Source: Candidatus Saccharimonadota bacterium (GTDB lineage Bacteria; Bacteroidota; Bacteroidia; Flavobacteriales; Blattabacteriaceae). From it: 32,000 bases of DNA. Shown in pieces: positions 6,239-27,943 of this stretch; position 1 is the first letter of the stretch, and each line of letters starts with the position of its first letter. The stretch spans positions 210,001-242,000 of the forward strand of contig NZ_OZ034981.1 of NCBI RefSeq assembly GCF_964030875.1. Reading direction: 5' to 3'. Made by a program: the position numbers and the translations under genes. The notes under the pieces were generated by a model that searched no databases, was not told the origin of the DNA, and saw nothing but the letters and a program-made list of their open reading frames with translations.

Positions 6239-6284
6239 GAATTTATATTTATAGTTAGAAATATAAACATGGGGATATTTATTG

Positions 6285-6648
6285 TGGAGTTGGCGGGATT
6301 CGAACCCGCGTCCATACAAGTAATTTGTAAGATTTCTACATACTTATCTCCTCTTGTAAACCTACAATAGAAGAGGAGCATTCTATTGAGGAATTATCCT
6401 TTTAGTTTTCAAAGGTTTCCTAGCTTTATTTTACGGTACCTCTTAATCATAAATTATAAAGCGGAATTTATGAGAGATATCTTGCTTCGGCAGATTATGC
6501 CGACGTGGCTTTAAATTTTTACTTAAGCAGCAAGAGCATAGTTTTCTTCGCCGGTTATATTTTGTGACGCTAGATTTTCGTGTTTACCTCACGTTACACG
6601 GTATGCTTACTTACTTATTAAGCTTGCTGTCAAAACCATTTCAACCCC
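6285..6648 (-). ncRNA. ssrA: tmRNA (SsrA), one-piece, about 364 nt
   Basis: The minus strand starts GGGGTTGAAATGGTTTTGACAGC (6648 downward). It ends GGACGCGGGTTCGAATCCCGCCAACTCCA (T-arm, acceptor, discriminator A at 6285; CCA not encoded). The acceptor pairs GGGGTTG/CAACTCC with the G3:U wobble. The tag frame ggc gaa gaa aac tat gct ctt gct gct taa encodes GEENYALAA* (6552-6523). Confidence 0.95.
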
Positions 6649-6923: not shown

Positions 6924-7053
6924 AATAAAGTCATTCATCGTCCAGCTTCAATAAAGTCATTCATCGTCCAGCTTCAATAAAGTCATTCATCGTCCAGCTT
7001 CAATAAAGTCATTCATCGTCCAGCTTCAATAAAGTCATTCATCGTCCAGCTTC
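6924..7053. repeat. Perfect tandem repeat, 26-bp unit aataaagtcattcatcgtccagcttc x5
   Basis: Units at 6924, 6950, 6976, 7002 and 7028, all identical. Confidence 0.97.
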
Positions 7054-7171
7054 TATAGTGAAATTCTATTGCTATCGCTTTTTTACGAGGGAGGAGGTAA
7101 CGCTTTCTGAATTTTTTTCAGCTCTAACTTTGTAGATACTCCAGAAGAAGTGGTCACTAGATCCATTGGTT

Positions 7172-7478
7172 ATTTGAAGTCGGTCGCTTTATCGCGTTAA
7201 TCAAATGAGGAAAGTCCGGACATCATAGAGCAACACAAATGGGTAATTCCCTTACACTGCAAGGTGAGGACTAGTGCAACAGAAAGAAAGTACAGTTTGG
7301 CTGTAGTGAAATTAGGTAAACTCTGTGCGATGAAATGCTATGTAGACCGGCGTTTAAGATCTGCTCGGTCGTAGTCGGTGGGTAGGCAGTTTGAGATAGA
7401 TGGTCACATTTATCCTAGATTAATGATAAAGGTTCCTAGGGGGATACAGAATCCGGCTTACAGGCCGACTTAAGTTAT
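7172..7478 (+). ncRNA. rnpB: RNase P RNA (bacterial type A), unusually short at about 295-305 nt
   Basis: Contains GAGGAAAGTCCGGAC (7207-7221), AGTGCAACAGAAAG, GGTAAACTC and ACAGAATCCGGCTTA (7446-7460). The closing helix pairs aagtcggtc (7177-7185) with ggccgactt (7463-7471). Only about 30 nt precede the P4 5' strand. Ends are uncertain by about 15 nt. Confidence 0.9.
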
Positions 7479-9510: not shown

Positions 9511-9596
9511 TTTACAAAGTGATTTACAAAGTGATTTACAAAGTGATTTACAAAGTGATTTACAAAGTGATTTACAAAGTGATTTACAAAGTGATT
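9511..9596. repeat. Perfect tandem repeat, 12-bp unit tttacaaagtga x7 plus 2 nt
   Basis: Units at 9511 through 9583. The array fills most of the 137-bp divergent spacer between the ABC-F start (9479, minus) and the smpB start (9617, plus). Confidence 0.97.
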
Positions 9597-10054: not shown

Positions 10055-10065
10055 AATATTATAGA

Positions 10066-10200
10066 GGGAGATTTCATCCAGTAAAATTAAAGGGAGATTT
10101 CATCCAGTAAAATTAAAGGGAGATTTCATCCAGTAAAATTAAAGGGAGATTTCATCCAGTAAAATTAAAGGGAGATTTCATCCAGTAAAATTAAAGGGAT
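10066..10200. repeat. Perfect tandem repeat, 26-bp unit gggagatttcatccagtaaaattaaa x5 plus 5 nt
   Basis: Units at 10066, 10092, 10118, 10144 and 10170. The reverse complement encodes the tatC ..PLILLDEIS.. segment. Confidence 0.97.
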
Positions 10201-10563
10201 GGTAGCAATAAACATGCTTATTATATCTGAAGGAGTGATAGCATAATTAAAAAAGCGTGTTTTCAACAATTTTGTAGTAATTAGACCGATTTGGGTTAAA
10301 AAAAGTAGGATCTATTACTATAGAAATATAAAAATGTTTTCAGGTAAATAACTTAGACGAAAGCTCTTGCTAAATTGTATCCACAAAATAAAACTAAAGC
10401 AGACAATATAATTTCGTTCTTGTTACGAAAGTCCAGGACGTATCAAACTACAAATTTCATCAAAAATCTAAGGAAGAGCTAGGATGATTATAAAACTTCC
10501 CCATAAATAAGTATTAAATTGTCCTAAAAGTTTAGTGTTTTGTATCTGTAGATTCAGAGATCT

Positions 10564-10613
10564 AATCATTGGATTATTTTGATGGATCAAATCATTGGAT
10601 TATTTTGATGGAT
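10564..10613. repeat. Tandem duplication, period 26 bp (aatcattggattattttgatggat, 24 of 26 nt identical)
   Basis: 10564-10587 equals 10590-10613. On the minus strand it duplicates the tatC codons IHQNNPMI and introduces a stop. Confidence 0.9.
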
Positions 10614-10815
10614 AACCCGGACCATTTTATTGAATAGACGATAACTAATAAAATTAGCTGGAGCAAAACCCACAATGATGCTTAGTAAAGCTATAAAAAC
10701 AGGTTTTCGTAATTCTTCAAGATGTTCCATAAATGGCATCGTAAAATATTCCATGAGACGGTCAGTTGGGAGAATTATTTACTCCGTGGGCTTTATAATC
10801 TTGTAAAAAATGACA

Positions 10816-11084
10816 TTAAAAAGAGGAGATGAAAGCATCCTTATAAAAAATTTGTAAGTCTTCAATACCTTCACCTAATTGATCATTCCTCCTTTAAAAA
10901 CACGTGGATCAGTTTTTTAATCACTTATGTACGGCAGTATATACATAAATCTGCTGACGGCTGCTGCACGAAAAGTATCGTATGCTCCTCCTCACCCCAG
11001 GTCGGTAGAAACCGTCTGTATACACGATTAGGGTACATTACTTTTGTTTTTCCTGCTATAAACCGCTTTAGTTTTTTGTAACCC
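10816..11084 (-). pseudogene. ftsY: Signal-recognition-particle receptor FtsY, about 270-bp remnant
   Basis: Minus-strand fragments read GLQKTK (about 11084-11066), DTFRAAAV (10979-10956) and GEGIEDLQIFYKDAFISSF* (10875-10816). No P-loop GxxGxGKT remains. The DTFRAAA-to-GEGIEDL spacing is about 80 nt against roughly 500 nt in intact FtsY. The position after rpmB-rpmG-DUF4295 matches the usual Bacteroidota operon. Confidence 0.8.
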
Positions 11085-11086
11085 TC

Positions 11087-11236
11087 TCATTTCTTGTCAA
11101 AAAAATCATTTATTTTATTATCTGGAACTATTTTTTCTTCAAAAACATAAGTTCTTGATTTGATTGACTTAATCAGACGTATAACTTTTGTCATTTTTTT
11201 ATATACATTATTTTGTAACACAGTTTTTTTTGCCAT
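11087..11236 (-). CDS. Small conserved protein, DUF4295 family (49 aa)
   Basis: Hand translation: MAKKTVLQNNVYKKMTKVIRLIKSIKSRTYVFEEKIVPDNKINDFFDKK*. It starts 1 nt after the rpmG stop. It is below the 60-aa cut-off of the ORF track. The MAKK.. start, the K.K...Y.F core, and the position after rpmB-rpmG match the DUF4295 genes of Bacteroidota as I recall them. Confidence 0.75.
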   Translation of the reverse strand: MAKKTVLQNNVYKKMTKVIRLIKSIKSRTYVFEEKIVPDNKINDFFDKK

Positions 11237-11237
11237 T

Positions 11238-11420
11238 TTATTTAATTTCTTTATGAATAGTGTATTTTCTTAGAATAGAGTTATATTTTCTTAATTCTAT
11301 TCTATTAGGCGTATTTTTTTTATTTTTTGTACTAAAATAACGAGAGATCCCTTTTTTTCCACTTTTCTTATGTTCAGTACACTCCAGAATTATTTGGATT
11401 CTATTTCCTTTTTTTACCAT
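11238..11420 (-). CDS. rpmG: 50S ribosomal protein L33
   Basis: 60 aa: [21 protein letters not shown]...[34 protein letters not shown]. Confidence 0.95.
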
Positions 11421-11423
11421 TTT

Positions 11424-11660
11424 TTATTTTATTAGTCTTTTTTTCCTCGAACGTTTAAGTGCCTCTTCAATTCCTATAGTATTCACCGTTCTAATTCCAG
11501 CTGCAGATATTTTTAACAAAATCCATCTATTTTCTTTAGGAAGAAAGAATCTTTTTTTTATAATATTAATATTAAAACGACGTTTAATTTTATTATTAGC
11601 ATGAGAAACTTTGTTCCCTATTAGAACTTTTTTACCGGTTATTTTACAAATTTTTGACAT
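11424..11660 (-). CDS. rpmB: 50S ribosomal protein L28
   Basis: 78 aa: MSKICKITGKKVLIGNKVSHANNKIKRRFNINI.. Confidence 0.95.
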   Translation of the reverse strand: MSKICKITGKKVLIGNKVSHANNKIKRRFNINIIKKRFFLPKENRWILLKISAAGIRTVNTIGIEEALKRSRKKRLIK

Positions 11661-11726
11661 TTTAAATCTTTTTTTTATTTCGGATTATTTAAATAACAGC
11701 TGCATAAGCTTTTTAATGAATAAATT

Positions 11727-11823
11727 CCATTATGCAATCCATTATGCAATCCATTATGCAATCCATTATGCAATCCATTATGCAATCCATTATGCAATCC
11801 ATTATGCAATCCATTATGCAATC
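11727..11823. repeat. Perfect tandem repeat, 12-bp unit ccattatgcaat x8 plus 1 nt
   Basis: Units at 11727 through 11811. It lies 67-163 nt upstream of the rpmB start (11660, minus) and before the yidC remnant. Track ORF 11611-11826 (HYAIHYAI...) is just its translation. Confidence 0.97.
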
Positions 11824-12710
11824 TAAAAAAATAGATTATTATTTACTTATAGTGACTATAATTTCAATATTAATAGTCTTTTTTTGTTTCAATGAAATTG
11901 GGTAGAAAAATATACAGTTATCAAATAAAAAAACTATTTGATTCTCTCCCAATAAATATGGGGAAACTATTTGAAGAAGAAAATGATATGATTAGTATAA
12001 AAATATCTAATCTTGGGGTGGGGGGAATATTAGTGAGATCTTTCTCAAGAAGTATAATACTTCTAACGATAAAATATTACGTTTAGTAAAGACGAAAAGT
12101 TTCACTTTTGGTATAAATATGATAACTCTTTCTGGTTTATAGTAATGATCCCCCTAATCTGCAAGAAACTCCCTATCAATACATCTTAACTATGAAAACA
12201 ATTTTTCATAACGTAGGGGAATTATTCATTCCCGAAAGAAAAATCATATTAGGCAAATTTGTCCATTACTAGTCGAGGTCTTTGTTCTTAATAATGCTAT
12301 TTTTTTTAATTGTAAACATAAATTAATTGGTTTGGAAAATAATTATACACAAATGTGTTATTCTTATGGAAAGAATAAAAGAATAAAAAAAGAAATTGTC
12401 TAGCTAATAAACAACAATTTTGTACTAAAAATCCTTTTAAAACAACGAAAATTCAATAAAAAATACTGACATCACCATTTGATATTAAATGGTGTTCTAT
12501 GTTTTCTCCATTAGTTTATAATGAACTTAATTGTAAGGCAAAGTGGGATTTTGTTCCATTAAAGTATAATCTTCTTAAGAAGTATGGTGATAATTTTGAA
12601 GATCTTATCCCATTTGGTTGGAGTATTTTGATCAAAAACAAAGTTTAATTATTATAGTAAAACTTATATTATTCCCCATTACTTATTGGCAATGTAAATT
12701 CATTGCTATA

Positions 12711-12785
12711 ATGAAAATTATACGTTATGATATAGAAGAACTGAATGAAAATTATACGTTATGATATAGAAGAACTGAATGAAAA
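12711..12785. repeat. Perfect 34-bp tandem duplication atgaaaattatacgttatgatatagaagaactga x2 plus 7 nt
   Basis: 12711-12744 equals 12745-12778, inside the yidC remnant. Confidence 0.95.
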
Positions 12786-12968
12786 ACTTAAATCTGCAGA
12801 TAAGCAACAAGCTACTATAGAATTTTATAAAAAAATCGTAATAAATCCAATGTCTGGATTTTTTATGCACTGTTTCAATTTTTTTAAAAAGATTATTAAT
12901 CTTCGAGGAAAATCATTTCTTTGGGCTTATGATTTAACTTATTACGATTCAGTATTTCATCTTCCTAT

Positions 12969-12998
12969 CCCTATTTATCCCTATTTATCCCTATTTAT
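12969..12998. repeat. Perfect tandem repeat, 10-bp unit ccctatttat x3
   Basis: Units at 12969, 12979 and 12989, inside the yidC remnant (IPIYPYLSLF region). Confidence 0.93.
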
Positions 12999-13181
12999 GG
13001 AAATCATGTTAGTTTATTTTATATTGTATACAAAGTTTAGTCATATAAATAATTACGTTCAAGTAAATAATAATAATATTTCATGCCCATAATAATGCTT
13101 TTATTTAATTATGCTTCCGTACTTTCATTATATTATATAAAATCTTTTGAATATTATGTTTATATATAAGGGAATAATATT

Positions 13182-15023: not shown

Positions 15024-16925
15024 TTATTTAACTTCTTCAAAATCGACATCTTGAACATTTTTACTCTGAGTATTAGATGCGGAAGTATTTTTACTCTGAG
15101 TATTAGATGCGGAAGTATTTTTTTGAGCAGTATACAATTCTTGTGAAATACTGGTCCAAATATCTGTTAAAATTTTTGTAGTCCTGTCTATTTCATAGAA
15201 ATTTTTTGAAGCCCGAGCATTTTTAAGCTGTTGTAAAATATCTTCTATTTTTTTCTTATTCTCTTTTGATAATTTGTTTTCGGATTCTTTAATCTGTTTT
15301 TCAGTTTGAAAAATTAGTCCATCCGTAGCATTTAACTTATCAATTTCTTCTTTATATTTTCTGTCTTTATCAGCATTTTCTTGGGCTTCTCGTTTCATTT
15401 TTTCAATTTCTTCTTGACTTAATCCTGAAGAAGCTTCAATACGAATTGATTGTTCTCTATTAGTACCTTTATCTTTAGCTGAAACGTTTAAAATACCATT
15501 GGCATCAATATCAAAAGTTACTTCTATTTGAGGTCTTCCTCTAGGAGCTGGTGGTATATTAATTAAATCGAACCGGCCAATTTCTTTATTATCTTTGAAA
15601 AGAGATCGTTCACCTTGTCCTACTCGAATAGTTACAGCTGGTTGATTGTCAGAAGCAGTAGAAAATGTTTCTGATTTTTTTGTTGGTATAGTTGTATTAG
15701 ATTCTATTAATTTAGTAAATATTCCACCTAAAGTTTCTATACCTAAAGAAAGTGGTGTGACATCCAGGAGAAGCACATCTTTAATATCTCCAACAAGAAC
15801 TCCACCTTGAATAGCTGCTCCTATAGCTACAACTTCGTCAGGATTAACACCTTTTGAAGGTTTTTTTCCAAATAATTTTTCTACTTCAGCTTGAATTTTT
15901 GGAATTCGTGTAGAACCACCTACTAAAATTACTTCATCAATATCTTTAATTGCATCTAATCCAGCAGATTCTAATGCTTTTTTGCAAGGTTCCATGGAAC
16001 GACGAATAAGACCATCTTCAAGTTGTTCAAATTGAGCTCTAGTAATAGTTTGTACTAAATGTTTTGGTCCAGAAGAAGTAGCAGTAATATAAGGTAAATT
16101 AATTTCAGTTTTTAGTCCTGAGGAAAGTTCGATTTTTGCTTTTTCAGCTGCTTCTTTTAAACGTTGATGAGCCATAGGATCTTGTCGAAGATCAATACCT
16201 TCTTGAGATTGGAAACTCTTTACCAAGAAATTAATAAGAATATCGTCAAAATCATCTCCTCCTAAATTGGTATCTCCATTTGTAGAAAGTACTTCAAATA
16301 CGCCATCACCTAATTCTAGAATAGAAATATCGAAAGTCCCTCCTCCTAAATCATATACTGCGATTTTTTTATCATGTTTCTTTTTATCTAATCCATAAGC
16401 TAATGCTGCTGCAGTAGGTTCATTAATTATGCGTTCTACTTTCAATCCTGCAATTTCTCCAGATTCTTTAGTAGCTTGTCTTTGTGAATCATTAAAATAT
16501 GCAGGGACAGTGATAACTGCACGGGTAACTTTCTGTCCAAGATAATCTTCAGCAGTTTTCTTCATTTTTTGTAAAATCATTGCTGAAATTTCTTGTGGAG
16601 TATAAATTTTTTTATCTATATCGACTCTTGGAGTATTATTAGGACCTTGTATAACCTTATATGGCACCCGATTTATTTCAGTAGAAAGATCCGAAAATGT
16701 TGTCCCCATAAACCGTTTTATTGAAAAAATAGTTTTTTTAGAATTAGTAACAGCTTGTCTTTTAGCTGGATCTCCGATTTTTATTTCTCCTTCTTCAACA
16801 AAGGCTACCATAGATGGAGTAGTTCTTTTTCCTTCAGAATTAGGAATTACTATAGGATCATTCCCTTCCATTACTGCAACACAGGAATTGGTTGTTCCTA
16901 AATCTATACCAATAATTTTATTCAT
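15024..16925 (-). CDS. dnaK: Molecular chaperone DnaK (Hsp70)
   Basis: 633 aa: [36 protein letters not shown]-terminus DVDFEEVK. Carries an in-frame 10-aa duplication near the C-terminus. Confidence 0.97.
15057..15122. repeat. Perfect 30-bp tandem duplication (period 30, about 2.2 copies)
   Basis: 15061-15090 equals 15091-15120, with matching flanks. It is in frame in dnaK and gives [20 protein letters not shown]. Confidence 0.95.
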
Positions 16926-19619: not shown

Positions 19620-20290
19620 TAATGTTCGTCCAAAAAATACTCTCTATAATTAAAGAAAGTGCTCAATTGGTTTACAAAACATTAGGAATGTTAACTTCAT
19701 AAATACAACCAGGTGTAACTACACTTTATTTAGATCACAAGGCCGAAGAATTTAGACGTTATCATGGCGGTATTCCAGCTTTTCTAGTACTTTATAATTT
19801 TCCCAATACATTATGCGTATCTACCAATGACATGGTATTCCCAATAAAAAACCTTTATCTGAAGGAGATATTGTGGGGTACTAATGAATGGATATTATGG
19901 TGATCATGCTTATACTTTTGCAGTAGGTGAAATATCTGAAGACCGAAAAAAAACTCATAGAGGTTATTCTCTATCCCGTGGTATCTATTCTTGTAGAATA
20001 GGGAATTGTACAGGAGATATTGGATACGCTATTCATAACTATGCAGAAAAATATGGTTCCGGTGTAGTTATAGAATACACGGATTAGTAAAAAAATCTAA
20101 TCCTCTGTTACCCAATTATGGAAAAAGAGGATATGATGGTCCTAGCTATTGAACCCATGATTAATCAGGGAACACCTAAGAGAATTAAAAAATATGATTG
20201 GACAATTATTACTAATAAGCCTTCAGTTCATTTTTAACATAATGTAGAAACCCAATTTTACTTTCTACATCTAAAACTATTCATTCTTCT
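19620..20290 (+). pseudogene. map: Methionine aminopeptidase type I, eroded
   Basis: Fragments in several frames: IIKESAQLVYKTLGMLTS*IQPGVTTLYLD..EEF, FPNTLCVSTND, IPNKKPLSEGDIV, MNGYYGDHAYTFAVGEISE (ORF 19884-20087), GDIGYAIHNYAEKYG, PNYGKRG, LAIEPMINQGT, DWTIITNKPSVHF*H. Deletions remove the IDCG and HGxG/HE metal-ligand regions. Confidence 0.85.
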
Positions 20291-20372
20291 GAAGAGGAAC
20301 CGACTATTAAACGTATTCTGCTCTTACTCGAGAATAAGTATAAATTCGTCATTTATTTTTAACAAAAATCTT

Positions 20373-20762
20373 ATGCCAACAATCCAACAGTTAATAAGAA
20401 AGAAAAGAGAAATTTTTAATAAAAAAAGCAAATCTCCGGCTTTAAATTCTTGTCCTCAACGTCGAGGAGTCTGTATACGAGTTTATACTACTACTCCTAA
20501 AAAACCTAATTCGGCAATGCGTAAAGTGGCTAGAGTCCGGTTAACTAATGGAAAAGAGGTTAATGCCTATATTCCTGGTGAGGGTCATAATTTACAAGAA
20601 CACTCTATCGTTTTAGTTCGTGGTGGAAGAGTTAAAGATTTGCCTGGTGTACGTTATCATATATTACGAGGTGCTATAGATACTGCTGGAGTAAAAGATA
20701 GAAAACAAGCACGTAGTAAATATGGAACTAAATATTCCAAAAATGAAAAAAGTAACCCTTAA
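20373..20762 (+). CDS. rpsL: 30S ribosomal protein S12
   Basis: 129 aa: [54 protein letters not shown]. Confidence 0.97.
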
Positions 20763-21219
20763 AAAAAGATCTTTATTACCTGATCCAAAATTTAACGACC
20801 CCTTAGTAAGTCGTTTTGTTAATAATTTAATGAAAAATGGGAAGAAAAATCTCGCATATAACATCTTTTATGGTGCTATGAAAATTGTAAAAGAACGTAA
20901 TGAAAATAAAGATAAAAATGAGCTAGAAATTTGGAAACAAGCACTTACCAATATTATGCCTCATGTAGAAGTTAGGAGTCGTAGAGTAGGAGGATCTACT
21001 TTTCAGATTCCTAGACAAATTAGTCCATATAGAAAAATATCAATAGCTATGAAATGGCTTATCTGTTACTCACGAAAAAGAAATGAAAAAAGTATGTCTG
21101 ATAATCTTGCTGCAGAAATTATTGCCGCATCTAAGGAAGAAGGATTAGCTGTAAAGAAACGTATTGATACTCATAAAATGGCCGAATCTAATAAAGCTTT
21201 CTCACATTTTAGGTTCTAA
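20743..21219 (+). CDS. rpsG: 30S ribosomal protein S7
   Basis: The start is moved to ATG 20743 ([35 protein letters not shown]), which matches the canonical S7 N-terminus. It overlaps the rpsL tail by 20 nt. Confidence 0.93.
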
Positions 21220-23321
21220 TGAAAGATCTTAAATTTACTAGGAATATAGGTATAGCAGCGCATATAGATGCAGGAAAAACTACTACTACAGAACGTATCC
21301 TTTTTTATACTGGGATCAACCATAAAATAGGTGAAGTCCATGATGGGGCTTCCACTATGGATTGGATGGCTCAAGAACAAGAGAGAGGTATTACTATTAC
21401 TTCAGCTGCTACTAGATGTGAATGGAAATATTGTAATAATAAATATGATATAAATATTATAGATACACCAGGTCACGTGGATTTTACCGTAGAAGTAGAA
21501 CGTTCCTTAAGAGTCTTAGATGGAATGGTTACTATTTTTAGTGCGGTAGATGGAGTAGAACCACAATCCGAAACTGTATGGCGTCAAGCAGAAAAATATA
21601 AAGTCCCAAGAATAGGTTTCGTCAATAAGATGGATAGACGAGGTGCAGATTTTTTCAATGTTTGTTCTCAGGTAAAAAAAATATTAGGTGGGAATCCTTT
21701 GCCCCTGCAAGTTCCTATTGGGAGCGAAGAAAGTTTTAAAGGTGTTGTGGATCTTATTTATAATAAAGCTATAATCTGGAGTGAAGATGATTATGGTATG
21801 ACTTATAAAAATATCCCTATTCCCAACAATCTTGAAAAAATAGTAGCTTACTATCGTGGAAAACTTATTGAAGCTATCGCGGAATACGATGATATTTTGA
21901 TGGAAAAATTTTTTGAAAATCCTAATTCTATTTCAGAAAAGGAGTTGATTGAAGATTTGAGAAAAGCTACTATTCAAATGAAGATTGTTCCTATGCTTTG
22001 TGGATCATCATTTAAAAATAAAGGGGTCCAGTCTATTTTAGATGCTGTTTGTCAATATCTTCCATCTCCTCTAGATGTGGAACAGATTATTGGAAATAAT
22101 ATTAAAACAAAATCTTCCGAAAAAATAATTCCAAGTGATAATGAACCATTTACAGCTTTAGCTTTTAAAATTTCTACTGATCCTTTTGTCGGTCGTTTAG
22201 CTTTTTTTAGGGTCTATTCTGGAAAGCTTTCTGCAGGTTCTTATGTTTTAAATACTCGTTCCAATAATAGAGAACGTATTTCTCGTCTATATCAAATGCA
22301 TGCTAATAAGCAAAACCCAATTAATAGTATTAAATCAGGAGATATTGGAGCTGCTGTAGGATTTAAAGATATAAAAACTGGAGATACTCTTTGTGATGAG
22401 AATCGGCCGATCCTTTTGGAAAGTATATCTTTTCCTGATCCAGTAATCGGGTTTTCCATAGAACCTAAATATAAAAATGATATTGATAAAATGAGTTTTG
22501 CTCTTTCCAGACTCGTTGAAGAAGATCCTACTCTTCAAGTTCGTATAGATAATTCCAGTGGACAAACGATTTTATCAGGAATGGGAGAGCTTCATTTAGA
22601 AATCATTATTGATCGTCTTAAAAGGGAATTTCAAGTAGAAGTAAATCAAGGAAAACCTCAAGTAGAGTACAAAGAATCATTTACTACAGAATATAAACAT
22701 AGAGAGGTTTATAAAAAACAAACTGGAGGTCGGGGGAAATTTGCTGATATTATATTTAAAATTGGTCCTTCTAATAAGAATTCGTTCGAATTTGTTAATT
22801 CTGTAAAAGGAGGAAATATTCCTAAGGAGTTTATTCCATCTATAGAAAAAGGTTTTAAAGAAGCTATGAAAACCGGTCCTTTAGCAGGTTATGAAATAGA
22901 TGCGATGAAAATAACTTTAATAGATGGAACGTATCATCCTGTGGATTCTGATCAATTATCATTTGAACTAGCAGCTAAGATCGGGTTTAAAGAAGCGGCA
23001 AAAAAAGCAAATCCAGTTCTATTAGAACCTATTATGAAAATTGAAATAGTTACTTCAGAAGAAAATCTTGGAAATATAGTAAGTGATTTAAACCGACGTC
23101 GTGGTATTATGCAAGGTGTAGATGATCGTAACAATTCTAAAATAATTAGAGCACAGGTTCCTTTAACTGAAATGTTTGGATATGTAACTACTTTACGAAC
23201 ACTTTCGTCAGGAAGAGCTACTTCTTCAATGGAATTTTCTCATTACGAATCTGCTCCTAAAAACGTTGCTGAATCTATTATTTTTAGGGTAAAAGGAGAT
23301 CCTCATAAAAATGAATCATAA
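21219..23321 (+). CDS. fusA: Elongation factor G
   Basis: 700 aa: [37 protein letters not shown]. Its ATG overlaps the rpsG TAA (taatg). Confidence 0.97.
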
Positions 23322-23611
23322 AATTAGAATAAAATTAAAATCTTACGATCATAATTTAGTAGTCTGCTGAAAAAATAGTCAAATCTGTGAAACCCACTGG
23401 GGCTTTTGTTAACGGACCCATATGTTTGCCAACACAAAAAAAAATTTTTACTATTTTACGTTCACCACATGTTAATAAAAAGTCTCGTGATCAGTACGAA
23501 TTACGTATTCATAAAAGATTATTAGATATTTATAGTCTTTCTTCTAAAACTATAGATGTGCTAATGAAACTCGAAATTCCTAGTGGTGTAGAAATTGAAA
23601 TAAAAGGATAA
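23311..23611 (+). pseudogene. rpsJ: 30S ribosomal protein S10, reading frame broken near codon 17-19
   Basis: ATG 23311 gives [19 protein letters not shown] (stop at 23368-23370). The rest, [24 protein letters not shown]...EIEIKG, is in the +1 frame from 23363, with a tag stop at 23360-23362 just upstream in that frame. The total is 301 nt; adding 5 nt would give 306 nt, or 101 aa, the canonical S10 length. Track ORF 23387-23611 is the GTG-initiated C-terminal 74 aa. Confidence 0.8.
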
Positions 23612-23617
23612 TTTATT

Positions 23618-24244
23618 ATGTCAGGTATTATAGGAAAAAAAATTGGAATGACGAGTCTTTTTGATGAAGATGGAAAACATGTTTCTTGCACTGTTATTCA
23701 GGCAGGGCCATGTTCAGTTATACAAATTAAAACTTTTGAAAAAGATGGTTATTCATCTGTACAACTAGGTTTCGATAATCAACTAGAAAAAAATGTATCT
23801 AAACCTCTGTATGGTCATTTTAAAAAAGCTGGAGTGTATCCTAAAAAAAAAATTATGGAATTTTCTGGCGAATTTGTGAATAATATAAAATTAGGTGATG
23901 AAATCAGTATAAATTTATTCTCAGAAGGAGAATTTGTCGATGTCACAGGTTTATCTAAAGGTCGGGGGTTTCAGGGTGTAGTCAAGAGACATAATTTTTC
24001 TGGAGTTGGAGAACGAACTCATGGTCAACATAATAGGTTAAGATCTCCAGGTTCTATTGGAGCAGGATCTGATCCTTCTAGAGTCTTTAAAGGAACAAAA
24101 ATGGGAGGTAGAATGGGATATAAAAATGTTACTGTTAAAAATCTTAAAGTCCTAAAAATAGTTCTTGAACGTCAGATTATTGTTTTAAAAGGGTCTGTTC
24201 CTGGTAATAACAATACATATCTAGCAATTAAAAAATGGAAATAG
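23618..24244 (+). CDS. rplC: 50S ribosomal protein L3
   Basis: 208 aa: [31 protein letters not shown]. Confidence 0.96.
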
Positions 24245-27754: not shown

Positions 27755-27943
27755 ATGAAAGCATCTGAAATAATCAATCTCTCTATAAAAGAAATTAGTA
27801 ACCAAATAAAAAATAAAAAATCAGAGTATGAAATTCTTCATTTTAATAATAAAATATCTACGTTAAAAAATCCTCTAAAATTAAGAATTACTAGAAAAAT
27901 TATAGCTCGGATGCTGACTATACTTCGGAAAAAAAATACATAA
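27755..27943 (+). CDS. rpmC: 50S ribosomal protein L29
   Basis: 62 aa, lysine-rich helical protein in the expected position between rplP and rpsQ. Confidence 0.88.

Follow-up and report, generated by a model that had tools for sequence, protein, structure and literature searches.

Introduction

Rescue of frameshifted genes by transcriptional slippage at poly(A) runs has reportedly been found in the endosymbionts Buchnera and Blochmannia. For ribosomal protein genes that are frameshifted in one genome and full length in its close relatives, a sequencing error has been named as the most likely cause (Galperin et al. 2021, bioRxiv 10.1101/2021.01.31.429008). We describe here such a frameshift in rpsJ, the gene of ribosomal protein S10 (NusE), in a 32,000-nt stretch of a bacterial genome (assembly GCF_964030875.1, contig NZ_OZ034981.1, positions 210,001 to 242,000 of the forward strand), which is called the window in its whole length and whose first base is position 1 of all coordinates given below. 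By the closest matches of its S10 and of the flanking proteins, the genome is assigned to Candidatus Walczuchella monophlebidarum. Walczuchella is a flavobacterium that lives in symbiosis with giant scale insects (PMC12188211), and the genome of the Walczuchella from Icerya purchasi, ICPU (CP170564.1, GCA_053502465.1), has a length of 288,943 bp and was assembled with SPAdes from Illumina reads (1,523x coverage; Choi et al. 2025, PMC12188211). PRJEB75090, a project on the Walczuchella of I. purchasi that is mentioned in PMC13459715, is probably the source of the present record, and a taxon 'Candidatus Walczuchella endosymbiont of Icerya purchasi' exists.

An earlier note on the window, made from the sequence alone, had proposed four explanations for the broken rpsJ: a sequencing error, a split or truncated S10, an unusual recoding event, or the real loss of an otherwise universal protein. 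Comparison with ICPU and with the other available Walczuchella assemblies leads us to a narrower view. The lesion is private to this assembly and effectively of zero age, and very probably it is either an artefact or a young, unfixed allele, the gene being neither recoded, nor split, nor anciently lost.

Results

A five-base deletion in rpsJ

Direct translation of rpsJ from the ATG at 23311 yields only 19 residues before a premature TGA (23368-70) closes frame 0. The remainder of the protein lies in the +1 frame, which is closed on its upstream side by a TAG at 23360-62 and is then open from 23363 to the TAA at 23609-11, where it ends with EIEIKG. The stops of both frames set the bounds within which the frame can change, namely 23363-23367. 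Retranslation and the list of open reading frames (ORFs) reproduced all coordinates that the earlier note had given for the two frames, their stops and a 74-amino acid (aa) ORF starting at GTG 23387; the narrow window for the shift and the lack of a slippery site within it were likewise borne out. The joined translation of the two frames covers model positions 1-98 of 98 in the Pfam family Ribosomal_S10 (PF00338; E = 4e-32) and is 96% identical to the intact S10 of Walczuchella. In the ORF map, as in annotated relatives, rpsJ is the first gene of the S10 operon; fusA precedes it and rplC-rplD-rplW-rplB follow. The gene does not form one continuous ORF of about 101 codons with both strand beta1 and helix alpha1; the sole open S10-like ORF in the sequence as written is the 74-aa ORF, which starts 17 nt past the premature stop. 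As written, rpsJ is therefore a null allele or gene remnant.

The span of rpsJ in the window is 301 nt, versus 306 nt (101 codons and a stop) in all relatives. The earlier note had deduced a 5-nt deletion, with two codons replaced by a single G and with 301+5=306 nt giving back a protein of 101 aa, and alignment to the intact genes proved this deduction right. Aligned with close relatives, the lesion reads GTAG[ATAAA]TCTGC, the five bracketed bases being lost between 23362 and 23363. They comprise the AT of GAT (D18) and the AAA of K19, and their loss shifts the frame. In 25 S10 proteins of Bacteroidota, D18, S20 and A21 were invariant and K19 nearly so. Read directly, the sequence at the junction contains neither a direct repeat nor microhomology flanking the deletion, and the placement of the deletion is unambiguous. 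The two states of the junction can be told apart by the sequences GTAGTCTGC and GTAGATAAATCTGC. We found this one lesion in rpsJ, no second one and no further decay; the marks of an old pseudogene (multiple lesions, relaxed constraint, sharing by related strains) are all missing.

Only one NCBI contig (288,648 bp) is indexed for the 74-aa ORF by which the lesion can be recognised, so the deletion is present in the public record and did not arise when the window was extracted. If the genome had another, intact rpsJ, the copy in the window would be redundant, but this is the least probable of the explanations we considered: the S10 cluster at 90% identity lists only the 74-aa ORF and no intact form from the 288,648-bp contig, and the 20-kb stretch of ICPU that was examined contains a single rpsJ, as the first gene of the S10 operon. 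To our knowledge, duplicates of rpsJ are not to be expected in a symbiont genome of 289 kb.

The coordinates of the features at the locus are given in Table 1. The 3' end of fusA and the start of rpsJ overlap by 11 nt, which points to translational coupling of the two genes; the same overlap exists in the Walczuchella genome LLAX (L003) and in a contig from the ENA (L001). Downstream of rplC follow rplD, rplW, rplB and the remainder of the S10/spc operon.

Table 1. Features at the rpsJ locus of the window.
Feature	Position	Strand	Basis and remarks
fusA (EF-G, 700 aa)	21219..23321	+	ORF list; Pfam EF-G domains on the identical ICPU gene (L044)
rpsJ, 5' segment, frame 0	23311..23370	+	Codons 1-17 authentic, then out-of-frame V, C and TGA; alignment to intact genes
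Deletion junction	23362..23363	+	ATAAA missing; alignments with L001, L002, LLAX and ICPU (L044)
rpsJ, 3' segment, +1 frame	23363..23611	+	Codons 20-101 and TAA; every base as in ICPU
A6 run	23370..23375	+	Starts with the A of the TGA stop; outside the shift window
GTG ORF, 74 aa (S10 residues 28-101)	23387..23611	+	ORF list; Pfam model positions 24-98 only
rplC (L3), next gene of the S10 operon	23618..24244	+	Intact, identical to ICPU

Comparison with the sister genome ICPU

ICPU was compared in three pieces (L048, L047 and L044), which jointly span the whole window. Over positions 1-32000 there are no substitutions between the two genomes. Four differences, each of one repeat unit, fall within perfect tandem arrays: one unit of 13 nt more at 1980, one of 26 nt more at 6947, one of 26 nt less at 10075 and one of 12 nt more at 11726. 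The only other difference over the 32 kb, and the only one outside repeats, is the ATAAA of rpsJ, present in ICPU and missing from the window; the deletion is therefore without measurable age. The rpsJ of ICPU occupies the corresponding place in the operon, is equal to that of the window at all 301 common bases and differs only by having the five bases, which give it an ORF of 306 nt and 101 aa. The two genomes also agree at every homopolymer in these 32 kb of DNA with about 70% A+T. This speaks for an accurate assembly and against random long-read noise as the cause of the deletion.

The tandem arrays are a conspicuous feature of the window in their own right. Perfect arrays (98-100%) with units of 12-34 nt are found at 266-383, 1980-2086, 6924-7057, 9511-9596, 10065-10199, 11726-11823, 12710-12785 and 15057-15122, mostly in non-coding or pseudogene DNA; the last of them, with a unit of 30 nt, is located inside the 3' end of dnaK. 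The four arrays that are one unit off ICPU behave as fast variable-number tandem repeat (VNTR) loci, or as a unit miscount in one of the assemblies.

Intact rpsJ across the genus

An intact S10 of 101 aa is encoded in at least 10 other Walczuchella assemblies, and none of the assemblies examined shares the deletion. An identical S10 protein (P0123) is found in ICPU, CRMU and CRGE, another (P0122) in LLAX, ICSE and one or both of the Drosicha genomes, and a third (P0001) in an ENA metagenome contig (ERZ15609813) and a Logan contig (ERR10687444); the gene is also intact in the Logan assemblies SRR29856495 and SRR29856496. An eleventh, partial contig (Logan SRR32776412, S10 residues 12-101) has the junction intact as well. 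Pairwise comparisons of rpsJ within the genus gave nonsynonymous divergence (dN) of 0-0.008 versus synonymous divergence (dS) of 0.016-0.28, i.e., dN/dS of about 0.02-0.07, and by these ratios the gene is under strong purifying selection throughout the genus.

LLAX, which is more distant than ICPU, is about 96% identical to the window over 17.5 kb. In the comparison with it, the indel in rpsJ is the sole frame-breaking indel within an otherwise intact gene in 17.8 kb; all other indels are intergenic, a multiple of three, or in the region of map. The latter gene (methionine aminopeptidase, 19640-20308) is an old pseudogene whose remains are spread over three frames and differ from LLAX by many indels. 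LLAX itself has a broken copy, and map is not among the genes called in ICPU; in the ENA contig L001, which represents another Walczuchella lineage, it is intact (277 aa).

We searched a metagenome contig collection for the exact deletion junction and obtained no match. The motif of the intact junction, used as a control, gave 115 matches in metagenome contigs, mostly from free-living Flavobacteria, which shows only that the motif is widely conserved. Exact look-ups of window proteins, aimed at an independent assembly of the sample, gave no match for L3 and the 74-aa ORF and matched only ICPU for two others. The fusA and rplC clusters also contain short fragments from Logan, 97-98% identical and intact at the junction, which belong to a different strain and a Hi-C-like library and are uninformative on the present sample. 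In one contig of SRR32776412 (L049, 1,329 nt), which starts with GATCGATC, rpsJ-rplC, with its rpsJ junction intact, is joined directly to part of dnaK, located 8 kb away and on the other strand; the contig resembles a chimera from Hi-C ligation and not a rearrangement.

These data bear on the proposal of the earlier note that a universal ribosomal protein has really been lost, which for the lineage as a whole is refuted by the intact genes in at least 10 Walczuchella assemblies and by the strong purifying selection. A genuine loss that is fixed in the sequenced population, with S10 being dispensable, with the host or a co-symbiont providing it, or with ribosomes running without it, appears improbable to us. 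The genus is rich in pseudogenes, and some of its genomes have infA, infB, prfA and some ribosomal protein genes missing or as pseudogenes (PMC12188211), which, together with the apparent accuracy of the assembly (no homopolymer disagreement with ICPU), speaks for a loss. However, the small-subunit ribosomal protein genes remained intact in the seven genomes of Choi et al. (PMC12188211), the gene is intact in ICPU, a genome from the same host and identical but for the deletion, so that any loss could not predate the few most recent VNTR changes, and the low dN/dS across the genus speaks against a loss as well. A homoplasmic deletion in the living Walczuchella of Icerya purchasi, with ribosomes devoid of a self-encoded full-length S10, is in our estimate a shade less probable still. 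If it were true, it would require either a truncated or recoded product or S10 from the host or a co-symbiont. We are not aware of any insect endosymbiont that imports ribosomal proteins.

Recoded or truncated products

The earlier note had also considered that the cell recodes the broken gene. In such a scenario a programmed event (a +1 shift at UGC UGA as in prfB, a hop, or transcriptional slippage) would restore an S10 of 99 aa, and there are two features that might be taken as hints of it: a UGA in frame 0 where the shift window ends, which recalls prfB, and the codon GUC at 23362-64 in frame 0 and again at 23378-80 in the +1 frame, a pair that could in principle serve for take-off and landing. 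The other signals that we looked for are lacking. The P-site codons in the shift window, GUA, GUC and UGC, are unable to re-pair in the +1 or -2 frame; a purine-rich, Shine-Dalgarno-like element upstream of the shift window was not found on direct reading of 23330-23362; and the predicted RNA fold of 23330-23430 is not more stable than that of shuffled sequence (z = +0.61). The UGA stop is the only component of a prfB-type site that is present. A frameshift is not conserved either, because all relatives, including ICPU with its otherwise identical 32 kb, encode S10 in one continuous ORF. Furthermore, in any recoded product D18, S20 and A21, which are invariant, would be missing or exchanged for other residues.

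With regard to slippage of the polymerase, a run of about nine or more A or T would be looked for in the region in which the frame can be restored, and the only run at hand is the A6 at 23370-75. Slippage there cannot remove the stop, because the run is short and starts only with the final A of the stop codon, past its UG. Scans for Rfam families, promoters and terminators gave nothing relevant at the rpsJ locus. Reading TGA as tryptophan (genetic code 4) was tried as well and was ruled out, since several more stops in frame 0 follow directly. We thus regard recoding as very unlikely.

Another suggestion of the earlier note was that a split or truncated S10 does the work. A truncated or two-piece protein, consisting of the 74 aa translated from GTG 23387 by reinitiation, with or without the N-terminal peptide of 19 aa, is no likelier than recoding. 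Reinitiation after the premature stop is conceivable, the 17 nt between stop and GTG making termination-reinitiation mechanically possible, and the 74-aa ORF still matches the Pfam S10 model at positions 24-98. However, in an AlphaFold2 model of the intact S10 of a relative (mean predicted local distance difference test score, pLDDT, 78.8), beta1 comprises residues 3-11 and alpha1 residues 14-31. According to this model, the 74-aa form would be without beta1 and almost all of alpha1, which are elements of the core fold, and we therefore do not follow the suggestion that it is functional. The invariant residues I5-L16, D18, S20, A21, I24 and V25 would be lost or separated from the rest of the protein, no such architecture occurs among the best 120 of 3,738 S10 matches, and a lesion of zero age leaves no time for adaptation.

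Other features of the window and its relatives

Several further genes in the window differ from their usual form. Two ORFs (192-629 and 1022-1582) match N- and C-terminal parts, respectively, of cytochrome oxidase subunit I (PF00115) and are set apart by about 400 nt of non-coding DNA with a 16-nt tandem repeat. The gene looks fragmented, consistent with the reported erosion of energy metabolism. At 12745-13092, a remnant of 115 aa has a sub-threshold match to YidC (60KD_IMP, PF02096; 24 bits versus a cut-off of 35), and yidC appears to be truncated. The preceding 2.5 kb (10200-12745) are poor in ORFs and contain no more than three small genes, namely rpmB, rpmG and a DUF4295 gene on the minus strand. 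The genes for two structural RNAs, tmRNA (6282-6648, minus strand, tag GEENYALAA) and RNase P RNA (7176-7476, plus strand), flank the 26-nt tandem array at 6924-7057; the latter RNA is shortened, with 301 nt versus a model of 367 positions.

Differences among the Walczuchella lineages also affect other genes of the translation machinery. The gene rpmC (L29, 62 aa; 27755-27943) is intact in the window and in ICPU, whereas LLAX is without about 92 nt at this position and has been reported to be without rpmC; the content of ribosomal proteins therefore varies between lineages. At 20722-20762, a deletion of 29 nt relative to LLAX takes the end of rpsL together with the rpsL-rpsG spacer. By this deletion rpsL acquires another C-terminal sequence and runs into the start of rpsG, and the same rpsL of 129 aa overlapping rpsG is called in ICPU and in two Logan contigs, L045 and L046. 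In the gene calls of these two contigs, secY is fused with infA (IF-1) into a single ORF of 526-528 aa (18781-20306 in L045, 18791-20306 in L046); in ICPU they are separate. An unusual arrangement of the IF-1 gene has been remarked on by Choi et al. (PMC12188211).

Discussion

The comparative analysis leaves two ways in which the deletion in rpsJ may have come into the record. The deletion itself, its restriction to one assembly, the identity of 32 kb with ICPU and the lack of recoding signals were read directly from the sequences; between the two ways we infer a preference. With either, a working S10 would be made from an intact rpsJ template. Our slight first choice, which we hold with somewhat less than even confidence, is that the deletion exists only in the consensus and is an artefact of assembly or polishing. 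Of the four explanations in the earlier note, sequencing error is thus the one that stands.

The other way, a young and unfixed allele, was missing from the list in that note. It supposes that the deletion is real and persists beside intact copies in a symbiont population with multiple genome copies and deficient mismatch repair, and we think of it as a serious candidate as well, again short of an even chance. Symbionts of this kind hold many genome copies, and a defective copy of rpsJ could therefore be complemented by intact ones. Walczuchella is without mutS, dnaB and dnaG and shows ongoing, accelerated pseudogenisation (PMC12188211), which favours such an allele.

Each of the two has to face a difficulty. 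A deletion of 5 nt outside repeats is atypical of consensus errors, and the assembly is otherwise very accurate, which weighs against an artefact. On the other hand, rpsJ is essential and present in a single copy, and a null form of it would have to be the majority in the sample in order to reach the consensus, which weighs against a young allele. In both cases the event is of an ordinary, known kind, i.e., a frameshift specific to one record or a nascent pseudogene allele.

In practice, the result is mainly a flag on data quality and annotation: rpsJ in this Walczuchella record is frameshifted and should not be counted as a loss of S10. If the deletion was present at high frequency, however, the majority null allele would be direct evidence of complementation within cells of a polyploid, repair-deficient endosymbiont, and if it was fixed, it would be evidence for an organelle-like outsourcing of a core ribosomal protein.

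The comparison with known systems puts the locus into perspective. Among solved structures, the best relative of the intact Walczuchella S10 is uS10/NusE in the 70S ribosome of Flavobacterium johnsoniae (PDB 7JIL, chain o), with an alignment that spans both proteins from end to end (100 residues, E = 6.5e-44); the F. johnsoniae protein contains NLVDKSAEKIV, and it is through residues 18-19 of this segment that the copy in the window cannot be translated in one frame. With the +1 frameshift of prfB (RF2), rpsJ in the window has in common a frame-0 UGA where the frame must change; unlike prfB, it possesses neither a slippery codon of the CUU-U type nor a Shine-Dalgarno-like stimulator, and the arrangement is not conserved among its relatives. 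Similarly, the frameshifted essential gene, the A+T-rich genome and the nearby A run recall the endosymbiont genes that are rescued by poly(A) slippage, whereas the run here is only an A6 and lies outside the shift window. The map pseudogene has evolved in the same genome and under the same mutational regime and carries many lesions, in contrast to the single, unshared lesion of rpsJ. A further parallel is found in the frameshifted ribosomal protein genes of Galperin et al., which are likewise broken in one record and full length in close relatives; compared with these, the lesion in rpsJ comprises 5 nt, lies outside a homopolymer and is found in an assembly that matches an independent one, so that an error is less obviously the answer here.

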